Virus record (IMG/VR): IMGVR_UViG_3300032235_001069
Location: 1-64,000 of that record
Length of the DNA: 64,000 bases
Source: a virus
Reading direction: 5' to 3' (one strand)
Both the position numbers and the translations under genes were made by a program. The notes under the pieces are model-generated. The model ran no database searches, was not told the origin of the DNA, and was given only the letters and a program-made list of their open reading frames with translations. Numbering within the stretch: position 1 is the stretch's first letter; every line of letters starts with the position of its first letter. Below are positions 38,624 through 63,183 of the stretch, piece after piece.

Positions 38624-38916
38624 TGATGGAAGTCAAAATTGATTCTCTTGTTTATCAAGATTTTGTCTATCATTGGATAAAAAAAGTTAAAAAAAAGAAT
38701 CCAGATAGATTGCCAGAAGATAAGTTGGATTTACTCTACGTAGACTTTGACAGAGTAAATGGCTTAAAACACAAAGAAAGACTTTATACCAATAAATATT
38801 CTCCAGAAGATATTTTTGAAATTGTTGATAATGGAAAATATTTATTTTTCAAATTGAAAAACAACCTTGACAGTTCCGAGTTTGATGATAGTATCGAGGA
38901 AATCTATGAAAACTAA
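38623..38916 (+). CDS. small protein, divergent 'IKYGI' family member
   Basis: FEIVDNGKYLFFKLKNNL near the C-terminus. Confidence 0.55.
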   Translation: MMEVKIDSLVYQDFVYHWIKKVKKKNPDRLPEDKLDLLYVDFDRVNGLKHKERLYTNKYSPEDIFEIVDNGKYLFFKLKNNLDSSEFDDSIEEIYEN

Positions 38917-39460
38917 ATGCCTAAACGAAGAAGAAATTGCAGTTTTATTCACAGAATATTTTTGCGAACTTAAAAAATATGTTTTAAATTTTACTAGTTG
39001 TGTTGATTTTGCTGAAGATTCAGCGCAATTGAGCTTCATGAAGCTTTGTAAAAGCAAGCCATTTTTTGAAGATCAAGAATCCGCAAAACATTGGCTGAAA
39101 AAAGTTGCAAGAAATTCCCTTTTTACTTTGCATAAAAAGAATAAGAAATATATCTTTATTGATCCTCAAGAAAGTAATTCTGAAATTCAAAATCTTGAAC
39201 CAATGCTTGATATTGTCAGCGGCTTTGAAAGCCTAGCTTCTTCAGAAGAAGAAGTTTCATGCAAAACAACTTTAGTTAGTTTAATGAACAAGCTAACCAA
39301 AAAACAAAAGGAAGTTTTGCGACTTAGATATTTTGAAAATCTTACTTACGAACAAATTGCACAAAAAACAAAAAATAAAGTTACAAATGTCGGCTTTCTC
39401 CTTAATGAAGGAAAAAGAAATTTAAGAAAATTCTGGGATAGTTACGCAAAAGCTCACTAA
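38906..39460 (+). CDS. ECF-type RNA polymerase sigma factor
   Basis: region 2 AEDSAQLSFMKL...WLKKVARN; region 4 LTKKQKEVLRLRYFENLTYEQIA. Confidence 0.85.
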   Translation: MKTKCLNEEEIAVLFTEYFCELKKYVLNFTSCVDFAEDSAQLSFMKLCKSKPFFEDQESAKHWLKKVARNSLFTLHKKNKKYIFIDPQESNSEIQNLEPMLDIVSGFESLASSEEEVSCKTTLVSLMNKLTKKQKEVLRLRYFENLTYEQIAQKTKNKVTNVGFLLNEGKRNLRKFWDSYAKAH

Positions 39461-56706: not shown

Positions 56707-56794
56707 TCAAGAGTAAAAATTAACAAAAATTATTCTAAATAAGACGAAATAAGTAGGCAAAAACTGCCAGGGGGAGCCCTGGTCAGAAAAGACT

Positions 56795-56825
56795 ACACCC
56801 CACCCTTTCGGGTGAGGTGTTTTTT
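56795..56825. terminator. terminator at the convergence of + and - gene blocks
   Basis: ACACCCCACCC-tttc-GGGTGAGGTGT followed by a T run. Confidence 0.75.
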
Positions 56826-58252: not shown

Positions 58253-58584
58253 ACTGAGCTATGGGTACTGGAAAGATCAATGCTCTTGCGGTGATATTCT
58301 TCACCATAAACTCTTTCTGTCAAGACAATTTCGACTTTGCCTGACGGATAAACATACACCTCACCATAAGTGCCAAGAAAATAATCGAACTTTGGATAAT
58401 GTTCTCTTAGAAAATCAGCAACTGCATCTCCGTAGTCGTCGCCCATCTTGACGCACGCGCCTTCCATATATGCTGCCGCATCAAACCATTCGAAGATACG
58501 GTCTTGAGCAGACCAGTTAAAGATGGCATAGTCTAGCTTACCACTCTTCAGAAACTCAACAAGATCAAGCAATGTCTTTTCCAT
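58249..58584 (-). CDS. hypothetical protein
   Basis: 111 aa directly below promoter module A. Confidence 0.65.
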   Translation of the reverse strand: MEKTLLDLVEFLKSGKLDYAIFNWSAQDRIFEWFDAAAYMEGACVKMGDDYGDAVADFLREHYPKFDYFLGTYGEVYVYPSGKVEIVLTERVYGEEYHRKSIDLSSTHSSV

Positions 58585-58593
58585 ATGCGATAC

Positions 58594-58691
58594 ATGATAG
58601 CCAGTGTTAGGGAGAATGCAACACTTATTTCAAAAAATATTTACGCACTTGTGCGTAATAACACTTGACAGGGAGCCAGGGCTATCCCTGG
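58594..58691 (-). promoter_or_regulatory. hairpin-promoter module A
   Basis: TTGCAT-16-TATCAT on -; TTACGCACTTGTGCGTAA; TTGACA; CCAGGGCTATCCCTGG. Confidence 0.8.
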
Positions 58692-58714
58692 AACGTAACC
58701 ACCTCATTCTGAGG

Positions 58715-58800
58715 TGGTACGGGGAGTGGGACTCGAACCCACACGCTCTAACGAGCATCAAATTTTAAGTCTGATGTGGCTGCCATTACACCATCCCCGC
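58715..58800 (-). tRNA. tRNA-Leu(TAA)
   Basis: TCAGA-CTTAAAA-TTTGA, long variable arm, CCA. Confidence 0.92.
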
Positions 58801-59226
58801 TTTTCTTTTCTTGTTTCTCCAGTTGTCTGTCAAAGCATGACAGTTGCAACATAAGAGTTGAAGATTTTCAAAATTGTTATTGGTTCTATTTCCATCTACA
58901 TGGTGAAGCTCCAAAGGGATACTATCACTCAACCATTCACTTTGCAAGCATTTTTCGCATTTGTGGCCTTTTTCATTTATTAAATGAGAACGAAGATTCT
59001 TTGTTCTTTTGTAGGAAGACCAATCTTTAATCCTTTGATCTTTGCTCCAAAGTTGACCAGTGAAATGCGACGTTTCTAAATTTAGTTTAGCAATCTTTGT
59101 CTTGACTGTATCAAAGTTTCCACCAGCTTCCTTTAGATCCAAAAATCTAAGGACTTCAGAAATGGATTTGCTTTTCTTAACCGCATTAATCAAATCCTCT
59201 TCTGTGTATCGTCTATACTTTCTCAT
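58786..59226 (-). CDS. HNH homing endonuclease
   Basis: CEKC...LELHHVDGNRTNN..ENLQLLCCNCH. Confidence 0.88.
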   Translation of the reverse strand: MRKYRRYTEEDLINAVKKSKSISEVLRFLDLKEAGGNFDTVKTKIAKLNLETSHFTGQLWSKDQRIKDWSSYKRTKNLRSHLINEKGHKCEKCLQSEWLSDSIPLELHHVDGNRTNNNFENLQLLCCNCHALTDNWRNKKRKAGMV

Positions 59227-59289
59227 GCTTTATTTTACACTAAAAAGGTAGACGAAGAATCAATTTGATTGCGAGACTGCCGAAGAAAG

Positions 59290-59562
59290 TGGGGGAGGTG
59301 GGAATTGAACCCACGACCAAGCGATTATGCTTACTACTATAACTTTCGTTACCAGAATTTCTGTTTGTAGTCTGGACTATGCCTTTACCGTGGTATTTCT
59401 ACTTTAGGTAGGTGATTATAGTCTCTACACGTTCCTCTTTCGAGGCTTCGCTCGACGTTGGGATTTTAAACCGTTCATCGAATTTACACCTTACTAATTA
59501 TTCGTTTCCGAATAATCGACCCATTATTAAGTCGCCTGCTCTTACCTCTGAGCTACTCCCCC
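59290..59562 (-). tRNA. intron-containing tRNA(CAT), probably Ile2; exons 59530-59562 and 59290-59329
   Basis: spliced form GGGGGAG...GGCGA-CT^CAT-AA-TCGCT...CTCCCCCA, 73 nt; arm matches E. coli ileX as recalled. Confidence 0.88.
59330..59529 (-). mobile_element. group I intron, 200 nt, no ORF
   Basis: P1 CGACU/GGUCG with U.G at the splice site, GAGACTA/TAGTCC P7, GAAA tetraloops, terminal G. Confidence 0.88.
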
Positions 59563-59569
59563 TAAAAAC

Positions 59570-59890
59570 TTACAATTCAAAAGCGAGAATGTTATCTGCT
59601 GGAAGAAAGTTCAACTCTGCCTCACCTTCATATAAGGAATATCCTAGCACAGTCAAAGCGAAGACGCAAGCATTATCGTAAGAAAAATCTCGAAAGGAAT
59701 GAATCTCTACACCATCATCTTTGTCCACGATGTAATAGTCTTTAATCTCATCAGACAAAGATTTAGGTTCTACACGAAAGCCCAAATGTGTAAGGGCTTG
59801 TTCTTCAGCGGTTTCCGCTGAATCTTTGTCAATCATTACTTGTTCCTGAAAGGAAGTATCATCTTCGATTAGTGTGTATGGTTCGTGCAT
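59570..59890 (-). CDS. hypothetical acidic protein
   Basis: internal duplication A..ALT.LG(F/Y); start uncertain. Confidence 0.6.
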   Translation of the reverse strand: MHEPYTLIEDDTSFQEQVMIDKDSAETAEEQALTHLGFRVEPKSLSDEIKDYYIVDKDDGVEIHSFRDFSYDNACVFALTVLGYSLYEGEAELNFLPADNILAFEL

Positions 59891-59948
59891 ATTTATTTCT
59901 TTAATGTTAAGCATATTACTACAAGGGTTACGATTAGAGCATCCATAA

Positions 59949-60644
59949 TTAGACATGAATTACAAAGCCCGAATTATCTTTTTTTGCTGGTCCCTTGGCA
60001 CGCAGTCCCACGATTGCGTTCTTTGGATCAAGGAAGCGGAGATCGTTTTCATCTCCGTCAATGACTTTGAAACCTTCGTGTTCTGTTGGCAAGGGTTGAT
60101 CTTTTTTAGTGGAGAAAACAAAAGCTGAATTGTTTCCTTTTGCTAAAGCTGCGAACGATTTAACTTGAGACACTTTAGTCTCTGCGCGTGAAAAAGTCAA
60201 GTGGTAATTTGAAATTGTCAAGTCCAAACGATCAAACAATTTTATGTAATCATAGAACTGCACACCAGAAAAATGCTGGAAAATGTTTTTTCCCTTGTGG
60301 ATAATGTCTTCCCATCTGATATCAGAAGTCAAGTTGAGACGAAACACAGCTTGCAAGCTTTTCTTTGCGGCTGATTTGATTCCTGTCTCAATTTCTTTGA
60401 TTAAATTATCCATGAACAAAGCCTGCTCTTCAAAGAAGCTTTTTGTTTTTTCGATTCGCTGTGGCTGAACCATGACACCCATGCCTGCCAAGTTAAGGCA
60501 AGAATCTGTGCAACCTTTTGATCTGCCTTGACAAACTTCATACCCGCTAATGTTAGCGGGTGCAAAGTGAATGCCAAAGGTTTCGTATCCGAAGGATCTG
60601 CCCTTCAGTGTTTTGTAATTAGCAACGGTGAGTATTTTTTGCAT
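59949..60644 (-). CDS. GP88-like phage protein
   Basis: C-x6-C-x3-CL, RLNLTSDI.W, QFYDY.K, NYHLTFS, DGDENDLRFLD, GLRAKG. Confidence 0.75.
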   Translation of the reverse strand: MQKILTVANYKTLKGRSFGYETFGIHFAPANISGYEVCQGRSKGCTDSCLNLAGMGVMVQPQRIEKTKSFFEEQALFMDNLIKEIETGIKSAAKKSLQAVFRLNLTSDIRWEDIIHKGKNIFQHFSGVQFYDYIKLFDRLDLTISNYHLTFSRAETKVSQVKSFAALAKGNNSAFVFSTKKDQPLPTEHEGFKVIDGDENDLRFLDPKNAIVGLRAKGPAKKDNSGFVIHV

Positions 60645-60649
60645 GACGT

Positions 60650-60770
60650 AAGAATATCACTAGCAAGGGTTCGTGCAACAATTATTTCGCAAAATATTTA
60701 CGCCTTTAGGCGTAATAGTTCTTGACATCCCAGCCAGGGCTACCCCTGGCCCCCACCCGATGGGTGGGGG
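60650..60770 (-). promoter_or_regulatory. hairpin-promoter module B plus GC-rich hairpin
   Basis: TTGCAC...TATTCT on -; TTACGCCTTTAGGCGTAA; TTGACA; CCAGGGCTACCCCTGG. Confidence 0.8.
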
Positions 60771-60823
60771 TCAGCTTCCCGATAGTGTTGGTAGTCAGTT
60801 AAACAAACCAAAAAACAAACCAA

Positions 60824-61078
60824 CTATCTATTTGGAAGAATGGAATTGTCCAAGATTCTGTCAAGGTAGAACATTCCGAAGTGTGGTTGCTCCACCTTAC
60901 CGTTCTTTGCTACTATGTAGAGAGTGACAGCTTCAGGTGGGCAATGGTTAGTTCCACCTTTTGATCCTTTCTTTACGCCAGTACGAACGGTGTAGGTGTT
61001 TGTTTCACCTTTCTTGTTGTGATACTTAATCGAAAAGAACTTTCCGTTTGTTGTTGCGATAATGCGTTTGCCAATCAT
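60824..61078 (-). CDS. small phage protein
   Basis: GKFFSI...KKGE...RTGVKK. Confidence 0.65.
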   Translation of the reverse strand: MIGKRIIATTNGKFFSIKYHNKKGETNTYTVRTGVKKGSKGGTNHCPPEAVTLYIVAKNGKVEQPHFGMFYLDRILDNSILPNR

Positions 61079-61082
61079 AATG

Positions 61083-61334
61083 TTATTCCTCGTCTTCGTC
61101 GTCAAAATCTTCGTCCTCGTCGTCCCAATCATCTGGTTCTGTGGTGTTCATCGCAATGGTGGCGAGCAGATGATCGTAGTCTCCGCTTTGCGCTTCTTCT
61201 AGAACCGCACGAACTTCTTCTTGTGACCAGCCTTGGCGAAGCGCATTGCTTCTCCATGTTCCCATGATCACGAATGCATTGCCATCGAGGCCGACCAACT
61301 GCATCTTAACTTTCTTGGTTTTTGTGTTTTGCAT
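61083..61334 (-). CDS. small phage protein
   Basis: LVGLDGNAF.IMG...SGDYDHLL. Confidence 0.7.
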   Translation of the reverse strand: MQNTKTKKVKMQLVGLDGNAFVIMGTWRSNALRQGWSQEEVRAVLEEAQSGDYDHLLATIAMNTTEPDDWDDEDEDFDDEDEE

Positions 61335-61424
61335 GTCGCTTGTATTGTTTTTTGCTTGGTTGTACGACTCGCAACATTCTGTTGCCCCATCGTAAAGTTT
61401 TTTGATAGGTTACTCCATCAACTT

Positions 61425-61667
61425 TTAGTTGTTTCTTTTTGGAGTCCATACTTTGAGCATAGCCTCATCCTTCATAATGTCAATACCGAATCCTAAAGTC
61501 TGGAAAGTATTTCTGAGAGTGTAGGCTTGGAGTTCAAGAATCTTTTTCATTTCGCTAGTTGACATTGCATCGCCAACAGCTTCCTGCGTAGCCCTGTGGA
61601 ATGCGTAAAGCATTTCACAGAACTGGTTTACCAACGGGGTCAACTCTTCAATAGTGCTTTTGTTCAT
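61425..61667 (-). CDS. hypothetical protein
   Basis: directly below module C. Confidence 0.6.
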   Translation of the reverse strand: MNKSTIEELTPLVNQFCEMLYAFHRATQEAVGDAMSTSEMKKILELQAYTLRNTFQTLGFGIDIMKDEAMLKVWTPKRNN

Positions 61668-61673
61668 GTGAGA

Positions 61674-61790
61674 AGCATATACAGAGCAAACGAATGCGCA
61701 ACATTTATTTCAAAAATATTTACGTCCTTGGACGTAATAGTTGTTGACAGTCCAGCCAGGGGTAGCCCTGGACCCCCGCCTTTCGGCGGG
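61674..61790 (-). promoter_or_regulatory. hairpin-promoter module C
   Basis: TTGCGC...TATGCT on -; TTACGTCCTTGGACGTAA; TTGACA; CCAGGGGTAGCCCTGG. Confidence 0.8.
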
Positions 61791-61808
61791 AGCCCATTCG
61801 TATGGAAA

Positions 61809-62114
61809 TTAATGTGCGACTACTTCTGCTTCGTCGATTTCTATAGAGAAGTCTCCACCACCAAAGGAGAATTCAAGCTCATTACCCGTAAGGGAAACTT
61901 CTTGAGGAAGCCTGCGATCTGTTTTATGGTTAAGTAGAACGCTGTGATCCATCCCATCTTTCCACCTTTCGAGGTGAACATTAGTGGGAACGAAGTGGGA
62001 GACATGATTCCAGAGAATCAATCTTTCTCCCTTTTTGATTGCTCTCTTGACTCTCTCAACGTGAGCGTGTTTGACTTTGATTGTGATGTTGGTGTTTCCA
62101 ATGTTTGTTTGCAT
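61809..62114 (-). CDS. hypothetical protein
   Basis: directly below module D. Confidence 0.6.
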   Translation of the reverse strand: MQTNIGNTNITIKVKHAHVERVKRAIKKGERLILWNHVSHFVPTNVHLERWKDGMDHSVLLNHKTDRRLPQEVSLTGNELEFSFGGGDFSIEIDEAEVVAH

Positions 62115-62120
62115 GTGAGA

Positions 62121-62236
62121 AGCATAGCAAAAGCTCTCATGCGTGCAACAATTTTAATTAAAAAAAATTACGCACCTGTGCGTAATAGTTGTTGACAGGA
62201 AAGCCAGGGCCCTGGACCCCGCCTTGCGGTGGGGTC
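62121..62236 (-). promoter_or_regulatory. hairpin-promoter module D
   Basis: TTGCAC-16-TATGCT on -; TTACGCACCTGTGCGTAA; TTGACA; CCAGGGCCCTGG. Confidence 0.8.
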
Positions 62237-62244
62237 TGGTTCTT

Positions 62245-62454
62245 TTACGCTTGTTTGATTCTCGCCTCTACGAGCATCTCATTGAACTGGTCAAGCACTT
62301 TCTGCTTGTTGCCTCTCAAACCAAACTCCTTTTTGATTTGAGCATATGCGGAACATCCTTTGATCGGATAGATTCCTTTTGTTTCGAGTTTCAGGGCGCT
62401 TGCCAGCATCAGGAGGCGATAAGCGGAGATTTGTTGTGGTGTGTCTAGTGTCAT
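62245..62454 (-). CDS. small phage protein
   Basis: ALKLE.KG...SAYA.IKKEFGLRGNK.KVL. Confidence 0.65.
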   Translation of the reverse strand: MTLDTPQQISAYRLLMLASALKLETKGIYPIKGCSAYAQIKKEFGLRGNKQKVLDQFNEMLVEARIKQA

Positions 62455-62455
62455 A

Positions 62456-62659
62456 TTAGGTGTAGCATACTGGGTGGATGTCATTCCTGCAACCATTATA
62501 TTTTCTGTTCATCATAATGGAATGGGTGTGCATGACTCTTTTGAGCCTCTGCTTGGATTCTGTCTTGACCTTCTTCAACTTGGAAAGCTCCATCTGCAGA
62601 TAGGTAATCTCATCAATGCTGAGACTTTTTGCGGCTTCAATGATTTGTTTTTTATTCAT
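62456..62659 (-). CDS. hypothetical protein
   Basis: 67 aa in the cassette. Confidence 0.5.
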   Translation of the reverse strand: MNKKQIIEAAKSLSIDEITYLQMELSKLKKVKTESKQRLKRVMHTHSIMMNRKYNGCRNDIHPVCYT

Positions 62660-62664
62660 AAGAA

Positions 62665-63000
62665 TTAGCGAAAGACTCTTGTCAAGTGATTATTGACACC
62701 GTTCTTGAAAAGCTCATAGTCAACGCAGTCAACCGCATCCAACTTGTACCCACCGATATTCCATTCAAACAAAACGTCTGGGCTGGATGGTACACGCTTC
62801 CATGCGTAGATGGTGGCGACTGTATCATTGGGGAACTTTAAGCGCCATTCGATGTTAACTTTTTCGCTTTCATCGATTGGATTATTATGCTTGTCAGGCG
62901 CACCGAATACAGCAACCAATTGGTCGTATGTGCATGAGATGTAACCTTTGAGCGAGGTTCCGTTGATGAGTGGCGTTCTTCTAACTGTTGTAGTTGTCAT
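62665..63000 (-). CDS. conserved small phage protein
   Basis: GTSLKG...YDQLVAVFG.P...KV..EW...ATIY.WK...WNIGG. Confidence 0.7.
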   Translation of the reverse strand: MTTTTVRRTPLINGTSLKGYISCTYDQLVAVFGAPDKHNNPIDESEKVNIEWRLKFPNDTVATIYAWKRVPSSPDVLFEWNIGGYKLDAVDCVDYELFKNGVNNHLTRVFR

Positions 63001-63007
63001 GGATAGA

Positions 63008-63104
63008 AAGATAGCACAGGAAAGAGTGCGTGCAACTTATTTTTCAAAAATAATTACGCCCTTGGGCGTAATAGTGCTTGACAGATCCCCAGGGCTACCC
63101 CTGG
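63008..63104 (-). promoter_or_regulatory. hairpin-promoter module E
   Basis: TTGCAC...TATCTT on -; TTACGCCCTTGGGCGTAA; TTGACA; CCAGGGCTACCCCTGG. Confidence 0.8.
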
Positions 63105-63108
63105 GCGT

Positions 63109-63183
63109 TGGTGGACAGGATGAGACTCGAACTCATAACCAACGCCTTAAAAGGGCGCTGCTCTACCATTGAGCTACCTGTCC
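63109..63183 (-). tRNA. tRNA-Lys(TTT)
   Basis: GGACAGG/CCTGTCC, GCGCC-CTTTTAA-GGCGT, CCA. Confidence 0.92.

Follow-up and report, generated by a model that had tools for sequence, protein, structure and literature searches.

A covarying hairpin and a predicted leaderless promoter in a repeated module at early-gene cassette junctions of an uncultured freshwater phage

Introduction

Why does a phage keep a perfectly paired inverted repeat, whose inner bases differ from copy to copy, at an almost constant distance ahead of the promoters of its small early genes? The question is raised by positions 58594–63104 of the DNA analyzed here, which comprises the first 64 kb (hereafter called the window) of an 85.7-kb IMG/VR viral contig (IMGVR_UViG_3300032235_001069; estimated completeness 59%). 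The contig is that of an uncultured freshwater phage, whose source DNA occurs in lake and freshwater metagenomes. A sequence-only reading of the window had noticed five modules built around this repeat and had suggested that they are structure-read activator sites or recombination sites. We show that pairing of the repeat is selected, and its sequence context suggests that on the gene strand it is probably a modest intrinsic terminator or attenuator fused to the next early promoter, from which leaderless transcripts are predicted. With greater confidence, we regard the module as a gene-shuffling cassette resembling the promoter early stem-loop (PeSL) elements of T4-type phages.

The repeated module

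Inverted repeats of the form TTACG-N8-CGTAA are located exactly at 58641, 60698, 61720, 62168 and 63054, as had been listed previously, and no sixth copy is present in the window; the chance expectation is 0, and so is the maximum across 100 dinucleotide shuffles. Direct reading showed that the plus strand carries TTGACA exactly 6 bp past each of the five repeats and, 5–6 bp beyond it, the palindrome CCAGGG..CCCTGG, the core of which is missing at 62204, where what remains is a perfect palindrome of 12 bp. A hairpin rich in guanine and cytosine (GC) comes next in three of the five modules, and the other two abut the 3' ends of tRNA-Leu and tRNA-Lys. On the minus strand, a -35-like hexamer (TTGCAT, TTGCAC or TTGCGC) lies 18–19 nt after the repeat and is followed by a 16-nt spacer, a TATNNT hexamer and, 6–9 nt after this -10 hexamer, ATG. 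All of this geometry agrees with the earlier description, including the remark that the plus-strand TTGACA lacks a -10: no TAnnnT is found within 15–19 nt downstream, and this TTGACA was rejected as a -35 element for that reason. The features are listed below, with the folding free energy (dG) in kcal/mol.

58594–58621, minus strand: promoter of module 1 (TTGCAT 58616–58621, 16 nt, TATCAT 58594–58599; ATG of a 111-aa open reading frame (ORF) at 58584, 9 nt after the -10)
58622–58640, minus strand: A/T tract of module 1, ATATTTTTTGAAATAAGTG, hairpin U-tract and UP-like region
58641–58658, minus strand: hairpin of module 1, TTACGCAC-AA-GTGCGTAA (dG -7.1; terminator-like on the minus strand)
58659–58670, minus strand: box of module 1, gene strand TGTCAAGTGTTA, continuing into TTACG
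58676–58691, no strand: palindrome of module 1, CCAGGG-N4-CCCTGG
58699–58717, minus strand: hairpin CCACCTCAGAATGAGGTGG at the 3' end of tRNA-Leu (tRNA 58715–58800)
60651–60678, minus strand: promoter of module 2 (TTGCAC 60673–60678, 16 nt, TATTCT 60651–60656; ATG of a 231-aa GP88-family ORF at 60644, 6 nt after the -10)
60679–60697, minus strand: A/T tract of module 2
60698–60715, minus strand: hairpin of module 2, TTACGCCT-AA-AGGCGTAA (dG -9.2)
60716–60727, minus strand: box of module 2, TGTCAAGAACTA
60734–60749, no strand: palindrome of module 2
60750–60770, minus strand: GC-rich 3' hairpin of the cassette upstream of module 2
61674–61701, minus strand: promoter of module 3 (TTGCGC 61696–61701, 16 nt, TATGCT 61674–61679; ATG 61667, 6 nt after the -10)
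61702–61719, minus strand: A/T tract of module 3
61720–61737, minus strand: hairpin of module 3, TTACGTCC-AA-GGACGTAA (dG -8.4)
61738–61749, minus strand: box of module 3, TGTCAACAACTA
61756–61771, no strand: palindrome of module 3, core reversed relative to modules 2 and 5
61773–61792, minus strand: GC-rich hairpin of module 3, with a GAAA loop and a gene-strand U.G pair
62121–62148, minus strand: promoter of module 4 (TTGCAC 62143–62148, 16 nt, TATGCT 62121–62126; ATG 62114, 6 nt after the -10)
62149–62167, minus strand: A/T tract of module 4, T8 directly past the stem
62168–62185, minus strand: hairpin of module 4, TTACGCAC-AG-GTGCGTAA (ortholog in the related contig G001 TTGCG..., with a gene-strand G.U pair)
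62186–62197, minus strand: box of module 4, TGTCAACAACTA
62204–62215, no strand: palindrome of module 4, 4-nt core deleted, CCAGGGCCCTGG
62215–62236, minus strand: GC-rich hairpin of module 4, GCAA loop; homology with G001 stops here
63008–63035, minus strand: promoter of module 5 (TTGCAC 63030–63035, 16 nt, TATCTT 63008–63013; ATG 63000, 7 nt after the -10)
63036–63053, minus strand: A/T tract of module 5
63054–63071, minus strand: hairpin of module 5, TTACGCCC-AA-GGGCGTAA (dG -11.3)
63072–63083, minus strand: box of module 5, TGTCAAGCACTA
63089–63104, no strand: palindrome of module 5, 4 nt after the 3' end of tRNA-Lys (tRNA 63109–63183)
56767–56820, minus strand: end of the array, with a strong GC hairpin plus T-tract terminator at 56795–56820 and an orphan palindrome at 56767–56782 that has neither box nor inverted repeat

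The array continues beyond the window with modules at 64297, 64899, 65546, 65928 and 66310, and the resulting 10 modules across 58.6–66.4 kb head ORFs of 60–230 aa, mostly without family matches; palindrome and box have no further occurrence elsewhere in the 85.7-kb contig. The expectation of the sequence-only reading that other copies would also have complementary inner spacers held in part: seven of the 10 modules of this genome are paired, and the three at 65546, 65928 and 66310 carry no paired inverted repeat.

Pairing of the inverted repeat

Relatives were found by searching IMG/VR with a pattern anchored on TTGACA plus the palindrome (a 14-base pattern gave almost only single chance matches there). 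The five related contigs, designated G001–G005, with G000 denoting the present genome, contain 15, 18, 15, 5 and 14 palindromes, and a metagenome scan contributed 55 freshwater contigs; the total sample amounts to about 170 module copies, with 120–145 unique contexts. The array lies in an early-gene island at 55–68 kb with 40–52% GC, compared with about 33% genome-wide, and in each relative the palindromes are likewise confined to an 11–14 kb GC-rich island beside DNA of about 30% GC. Because this contrast recurs in all related contigs, it is a family trait, and a chimeric assembly is excluded.

When hairpins were required to start at the TT of CTATT, to have arms of 7–8 nt and to contain at most one non-Watson-Crick pair, 33 unique strings were obtained from this genome, the five related contigs and the 55 metagenome contigs, 31 of which are true hairpin-plus-T-tract modules. 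These 31 variants contain 239 Watson-Crick pairs, 3 G.U pairs and 1 C.A pair. Compensatory changes are found at stem positions 3–8, with A-T or G-C at position 3, C-G or T-A at position 4, G-C or A-T at position 5, C-G or T-A at position 6, C-G, T-A or A-T at position 7, and C-G, A-T or T-A at position 8. For two positions the full path of change is preserved: from A-U through G.U to G-C at position 3 (TTACG..CGTAA, TTGCG..CGTAA, TTGCG..CGCAA) and from C-G through U.G to U-A at position 4 (TTACG..CGTAA, TTATG..CGTAA, TTATG..CATAA). Both intermediates are G.U pairs on the gene strand and become A.C mismatches if read on the opposite strand. The pairing of the hairpin is therefore selected, as had been proposed for the variable inner arms from five copies.

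The outer TTACG/CGTAA, which had been regarded as fixed, covaries too, and TTACG is the end of a conserved box, GTCAA-N3-CTATTAC(G), that is kept in every module class, including the hairpin-free modules (65546, 65928 and 66310 here). The outer arms look fixed because TTACG sits in this sequence-constrained box and the 3' arm must match it, which leaves freedom only to the inner bases. Pairing takes in the whole of CTATTACG (11 bp) in G002 and G005. The module variant of these two contigs (e.g., G002 65582–69254) has no GTCAA, and CGCGCATYATGY precedes CTATTACG; its hairpin pairs the entire CTATTACGCAC with GTGCGTAATAG (10–11 bp). Since hairpin loops range from 2 to 4 nt and the outer arms are hence 7–9 nt apart, a rigid dimer operator is ruled out; a symmetric operator was rejected because of this N7–N9 spacing and because the half-sites change compensatorily, in line with the earlier argument that a plain operator is unlikely.

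A terminator-like hairpin ahead of the next promoter

A rule-based call assigned all five inverted repeats of the window as terminator-like on the minus strand. Over 31 unique contexts the hairpin has an average dG of -8.7 kcal/mol, and T makes up about 7 of the 10 nt after it; with stems of 7–11 bp and 5–8 T among the next 10 nt, these are hairpin-plus-U-tract sequences on the gene strand, and in most relatives a T7 run begins 1 nt past the stem. No T-tract follows the hairpin on the plus strand. Another observation concerns canonical T6 terminators located upstream, which accompany only 2 of 66 unique contexts of the hairpin-plus-T-tract module, compared with 20 of 79 contexts of other modules (Fisher p = 1.3e-4, a value that is only indicative because the contexts are related). 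The two elements are thus in complementary distribution, as a terminator role predicts.

The GC-rich hairpins located upstream are clearly RNA structures on the gene strand, with 27 G.U pairs against 6 of the A.C type and with loops that are mostly GAAA or GCAA (GNRA). As they usually have no U-tract, RNA polymerase should run on to the inverted repeat. The predicted 3' regions fold as three hairpins, with z of -2.7 to -4.6 against shuffles.

On the basis of these observations, the module would be the junction of two self-contained early-gene cassettes of the minus strand. In the order of transcription, a GC-rich GNRA hairpin would close the upstream cassette and would be followed by the palindrome, the box, the hairpin with its T-tract and a promoter of housekeeping type (TTGCRC, 16 nt, TAnnnT) that ends 6–7 nt before ATG. 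The covarying hairpin would stop or dampen read-through out of the upstream cassette, and its U-tract would double as an AT-rich, UP-like region for the next promoter. If one stretch is both U-tract and upstream promoter region, the fixed spacing of 18–19 nt is explained.

Predicted leaderless promoters

The pattern TTG-N19/20-TAnnnT-N5-8-ATG is present in 83 of 120 unique modules, compared with 4% of shuffles. The distance from the -10 hexamer to ATG is exactly 6 nt in 70 of the 83 pattern-positive modules; in all of these 70 the sixth base of the hexamer is T, although the pattern did not demand it, and the base before ATG is C in 63. Transcription usually starts 7 nt after the -10 hexamer, and with a 6-nt gap it is predicted to begin at the A of AUG, so that the early mRNAs are predicted to be leaderless. 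The -35 sequence TTGCRC agrees with TTGACA at only three of six positions. The A/T tract between hairpin and -35 appears to resemble an UP element. As a sigma-54 -12 element the class-A TTGCRC was rejected, having no GG at -24.

A Shine-Dalgarno sequence was found before none of the genes of the contig. First genes of operons outside the island have a -10-like hexamer 4–7 nt before ATG, and leaderless initiation seems to be genome-wide, with a -35 class differing from that of the island. These first genes also show TTGACA/T-17-TAnAnT ending 6–7 nt before ATG (e.g., starts 24003, 39985 and 55487), and internal genes have A-rich pre-start regions.

Points against a terminator and the reading at the DNA level

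Several points weigh against a terminator. For this role the stems are weak (dG -5 to -13.6), with basal pairs that are A-U, and in the copies of the window interruptions of the U-tract (ATATTTTT) are common. A canonical terminator and the hairpin occur together at G003 6329 and G002 66331, and in sister modules a long covarying hairpin of another kind stands without a U-tract beside it. The asymmetry between G.U and A.C in the covarying hairpin is only 3:1. Relatives in four RNA-labelled runs are short assembled contigs, in which transcript ends are unreadable, and termination leaves the invariant palindrome and the box unexplained. Furthermore, the palindrome is perfect right up to a 2-nt centre in five independent variants, whose innermost pair is impossible in an RNA hairpin and yet complementary every time; a process at the DNA level, such as template-switch correction or a cruciform, is thus probably involved besides selection at the RNA level.

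The last point is shared by the reading raised earlier, in which the inverted repeat, as a cruciform or hairpin or as a symmetric protein site, is an activator or repressor site modulating the adjacent promoter. Its centre, about -62.5 from the predicted start, is at a classic upstream activator position; one relative has an inverted loop (TCC-TT-GGA instead of TCC-AA-GGA), which is an event at the DNA level; and the distance to the -35 is nearly constant in this genome. We nevertheless consider a DNA-level element unlikely. Arm spacing (N7–N9) and loop length vary, the covarying arms (TTACA/TGTAA, TTATG/CATAA, TTGCG/CGCAA) leave no fixed half-sites for a dimer, and the intermediates are G.U on the gene strand. 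The -35 lies 16–24 nt away in G002 and G005, the near constancy of this distance here is already accounted for by the shared U-tract and UP region, and the same box and promoter type occur without any hairpin. A structure-read activator site becomes unneeded when the gene-strand U-tract, the terminator-like score, the gene-strand G.U pairs and the near-exclusion of other terminators are considered together.

Palindrome, box and sigma-54-like motifs

The palindrome and the box, which a terminator does not explain, would most likely be a docking site for a protein. A "double" form, TTGACA-N5-palindrome-N5-TGTCAA, is found after canonical terminators. In the window, the 4 nt at the core of the palindrome are oriented either way, as GTAG/ATAG or as CTAC (56767, 58676, 60734, 61756 and 63089; deleted at 62204), and family-wide the core on the gene strand is CYRC in 112 copies and its reverse complement in 12. 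Readings of the box as an IHF, Pho-box, NifA, GlrR, dif or hix site were rejected, either for lack of fit or in view of the variable centre length.

About 54 of 145 unique contexts contain a sigma-54-like motif, TGGCAYG-N4-T(T/A)G(T/C), at a fixed 26/27, 31 or 41 nt after CTATT, and the predicted leaderless promoter always follows. An example beyond the window, at contig positions 65490–65530, lies upstream of the predicted leaderless promoter and overlaps it. In one subclass, the long covarying hairpin overlaps the -24 element. A gene for a sigma-54 enhancer-binding protein was not found in the partial genomes, which represent about half of each genome. It is conceivable, though quite unlikely, that palindrome and box form a common enhancer or operator, through which one phage or host protein would coordinate leaderless promoters of housekeeping type and sigma-54-like promoters at fixed distances from the box, and that the adjacent hairpins, over the UP region or the -24, would be DNA or RNA switches gating promoter access rather than plain terminators.

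Cassette exchange at the module

Comparison of cassette order among relatives, which had been suggested earlier, showed that cassettes are reassorted at the modules. When module pairs were compared across contigs, 63 shared only the downstream gene, 46 only the upstream gene and 39 were collinear; the boundaries of the 109 reassorted pairs are at the module. In 43 of the 63 same-downstream pairs the similarity gives out no more than 4 nt from the palindrome, and the hairpin region is still common to 54% of the same-upstream pairs. Break points are thus spread inside the module, in keeping with homologous exchange in a repeated 100-bp module rather than a single crossover site. For example, G000 and G001 are 76–97% identical over aligned island blocks with several cassette insertions, duplications and replacements, and boundaries at or within 20 nt of the palindrome edge are found at 62233, 65956 and 66338. 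The module of about 100 bp before every cassette would act as portable homology for gain, loss and swapping of cassettes.

As modules clearly exchange sequence through recombination, the palindromes might be kept perfect by mutation, through intrastrand template switching or gene conversion between arms or module copies, and the pairing might have little or no function. Perfect palindromes with a 2-nt centre do exist, and the cores of the hairpin loop and of the CCAGGG palindrome have been found inverted, one core (62204) being deleted. Such upkeep is, however, an improbable explanation. Mutation by itself would not be expected to tie the hairpin so strictly to a T-tract downstream or to keep it apart from other terminators; moreover, 31 different stems have stayed paired in diverged phages, and only one strand tolerates G.U intermediates.

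The suggestion that the repeats are recombination sites shuffling cassettes stood as to the reassortment itself. Its stronger form, a site of the integron attC or hix/res/dif type with a dedicated recombinase moving cassettes at a fixed crossover, is very improbable. It is true that the palindrome is the cassette boundary in 43 of 63 pairs and that, as in an integron, structured palindromes (imperfect ones in attC) bound a unidirectional array. No tyrosine or serine recombinase (PF00589, PF00239) was matched in the available 49–59% of four genomes and 25% of a fifth. Moreover, break points are dispersed rather than at one position, the hairpin region is often retained, a fixed crossover site could not have a centre of variable length, and the palindromes are perfect, without the extrahelical bases that mark attC. 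Integron cassettes carry no promoter of their own, whereas each cassette here does, and with no integrase found in the partial genomes, membership among integrons was rejected.

Finally, a single-stranded DNA hairpin promoter for a phage-injected RNA polymerase, as in N4, is scarcely credible: small hairpins with variable paired stems (here 7–8 bp, with a 3-nt loop in 21 of 33) do precede early genes in both, but here a T-tract that would terminate such a transcript and a complete, conserved bacterial-type promoter with exact ATG spacing follow the hairpin, there are 10–18 copies per genome compared with 3 in N4, the phage encodes two sigma factors as well as a lambda-J-like tail protein, and no T7-type RNA polymerase (PF00940) matched in five partial genomes, with control genomes likewise unmatched.

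The phage genome and its neighborhood

The island contains about 25 small minus-strand ORFs, most without a family match; the exceptions are one GP88-family protein and one HNH endonuclease. The remaining contig encodes the lambda-J-like tail protein (2892 aa), a large terminase (TerL) with an intein, PhoH, a clamp loader and GMP reductase. The two sigma-70-family proteins, with regions 2 and 4, are encoded at 38885–39460 of the window and 71754–72458 of the contig, both on the plus strand, and probably serve middle or late transcription. The large terminase (1064 aa, contig 74443–77637) has an intein bearing a LAGLIDADG homing endonuclease domain, and its N-terminal domain matches Terminase_6N, a Pfam model named for T4-like viruses. 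No T4-type hallmark was found in the sequenced parts of the genome, which is 59% complete; the Gp23 profile had no match in the phage, and the control search likewise matched nowhere.

A tblastn search with TerL gave no close cultured relative, and the sole megablast match of the region to GenBank phages is 36 bp inside a group I intron. This intron splits tRNA-Met(CAT) at 59285–59565 (minus strand) of the window; its match to Rfam RF00028 (59352–59538) reaches 36.3 bits (E = 9e-8 in a small search), which is under the gathering score. A free-standing HNH endonuclease ORF (58786–59226) adjoins the split tRNA, and in the close relative G001 tRNA-Met is intact, with neither intron nor HNH insert. 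In cultured phages a match exists for the intron core alone (Shewanella phages 1/4 and 1/40), and wastewater runs contain this core in great abundance. At 61083–61132, a short coding stretch of acidic repeats, rich in GAC/GAA, matches many unrelated metagenome contigs; this is a low-complexity hotspot, and matches there are no evidence of relatedness.

As to the host, a protein atlas look-up of GMP reductase pointed clearly to none, and a 17-base pattern run against GTDB genomes gave almost only single chance matches and indicated none. One contig (L201) of a Zixibacteria metagenome-assembled genome had two matches in the wide scans with the 17-base and 14-base patterns. A Bacteroidota-type host would be our guess only, from the absence of Shine-Dalgarno sequences and the TTG-N19-TA geometry.

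Comparison with known systems and significance

The sequence-only reading had found no known counterpart of the layout. An early promoter that stands before small genes and is itself preceded by a stem-loop and an AT-rich tract is, however, the arrangement of PeSLs (PMC2839356, PMC4122927), which are composite terminator/promoter motifs of about 100 bp in T4-type phages, consisting of a stem-loop, an AT-rich region, a sigma-70-like promoter, and a Shine-Dalgarno sequence with start codon. Their stem-loops have been demonstrated to stop transcription, and the motifs, which lie on either side of ORFans, bring about modular shuffling (PMC2839356, PMC4122927). The present module, likewise a motif of about 100 bp repeated before small, mostly unknown early genes, combines a putative terminator stem-loop, an AT-rich tract and a predicted sigma-70-like promoter, and between relatives genes have been gained, lost and swapped at it with break points spread across the motif. 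It differs in having no Shine-Dalgarno sequence at its 3' end, where the promoter abuts ATG and a leaderless mRNA is predicted; in having in addition an invariant 16-bp palindrome, the GTCAA-N3-CTATTAC box and a separate GNRA hairpin; in a putative terminator stem that is A/U-rich and sequence-anchored, the PeSL stem being polyG/polyC; in sister modules that carry sigma-54-like promoters; and in belonging to a phage whose sequenced parts show no T4-type hallmark and whose tail protein is lambda-J-like. Most likely, the present module is a PeSL-like variant to be set beside PeSLs rather than counted as a member.

As in an intrinsic terminator, the hairpin lies after an ORF, runs straight into a U-rich tract of the coding strand and keeps its pairing through compensatory and G.U changes; unlike a typical one, it has a short and weak stem with an A-U base and an often interrupted U-tract, and half of the stem is sequence-conserved because of the overlap with another motif. 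The cassettes also resemble the morons of lambdoid phages, which are autonomous promoter-gene-terminator units among other genes, but morons have no shared flanking repeat, whereas here one conserved module flanks every unit of a tandem array.

The natural stem variants provide a ready series of compensatory mutations for minimal terminators, and the module could help to locate early regions and cassette boundaries in genomes of uncultured phages. What is new here is the putative terminator stem that is half sequence-anchored and half free to covary, the leaderless translation predicted throughout the early genes of a genome without Shine-Dalgarno sites, and the invariant palindrome and box that are common to modules with sigma-54-like promoters. 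Since PeSL-like cassettes are found in an apparently unrelated freshwater phage lineage, cassettes of the PeSL type may be a general means for large lytic phages, beyond T4-type coliphages, to carry and exchange accessory early genes.

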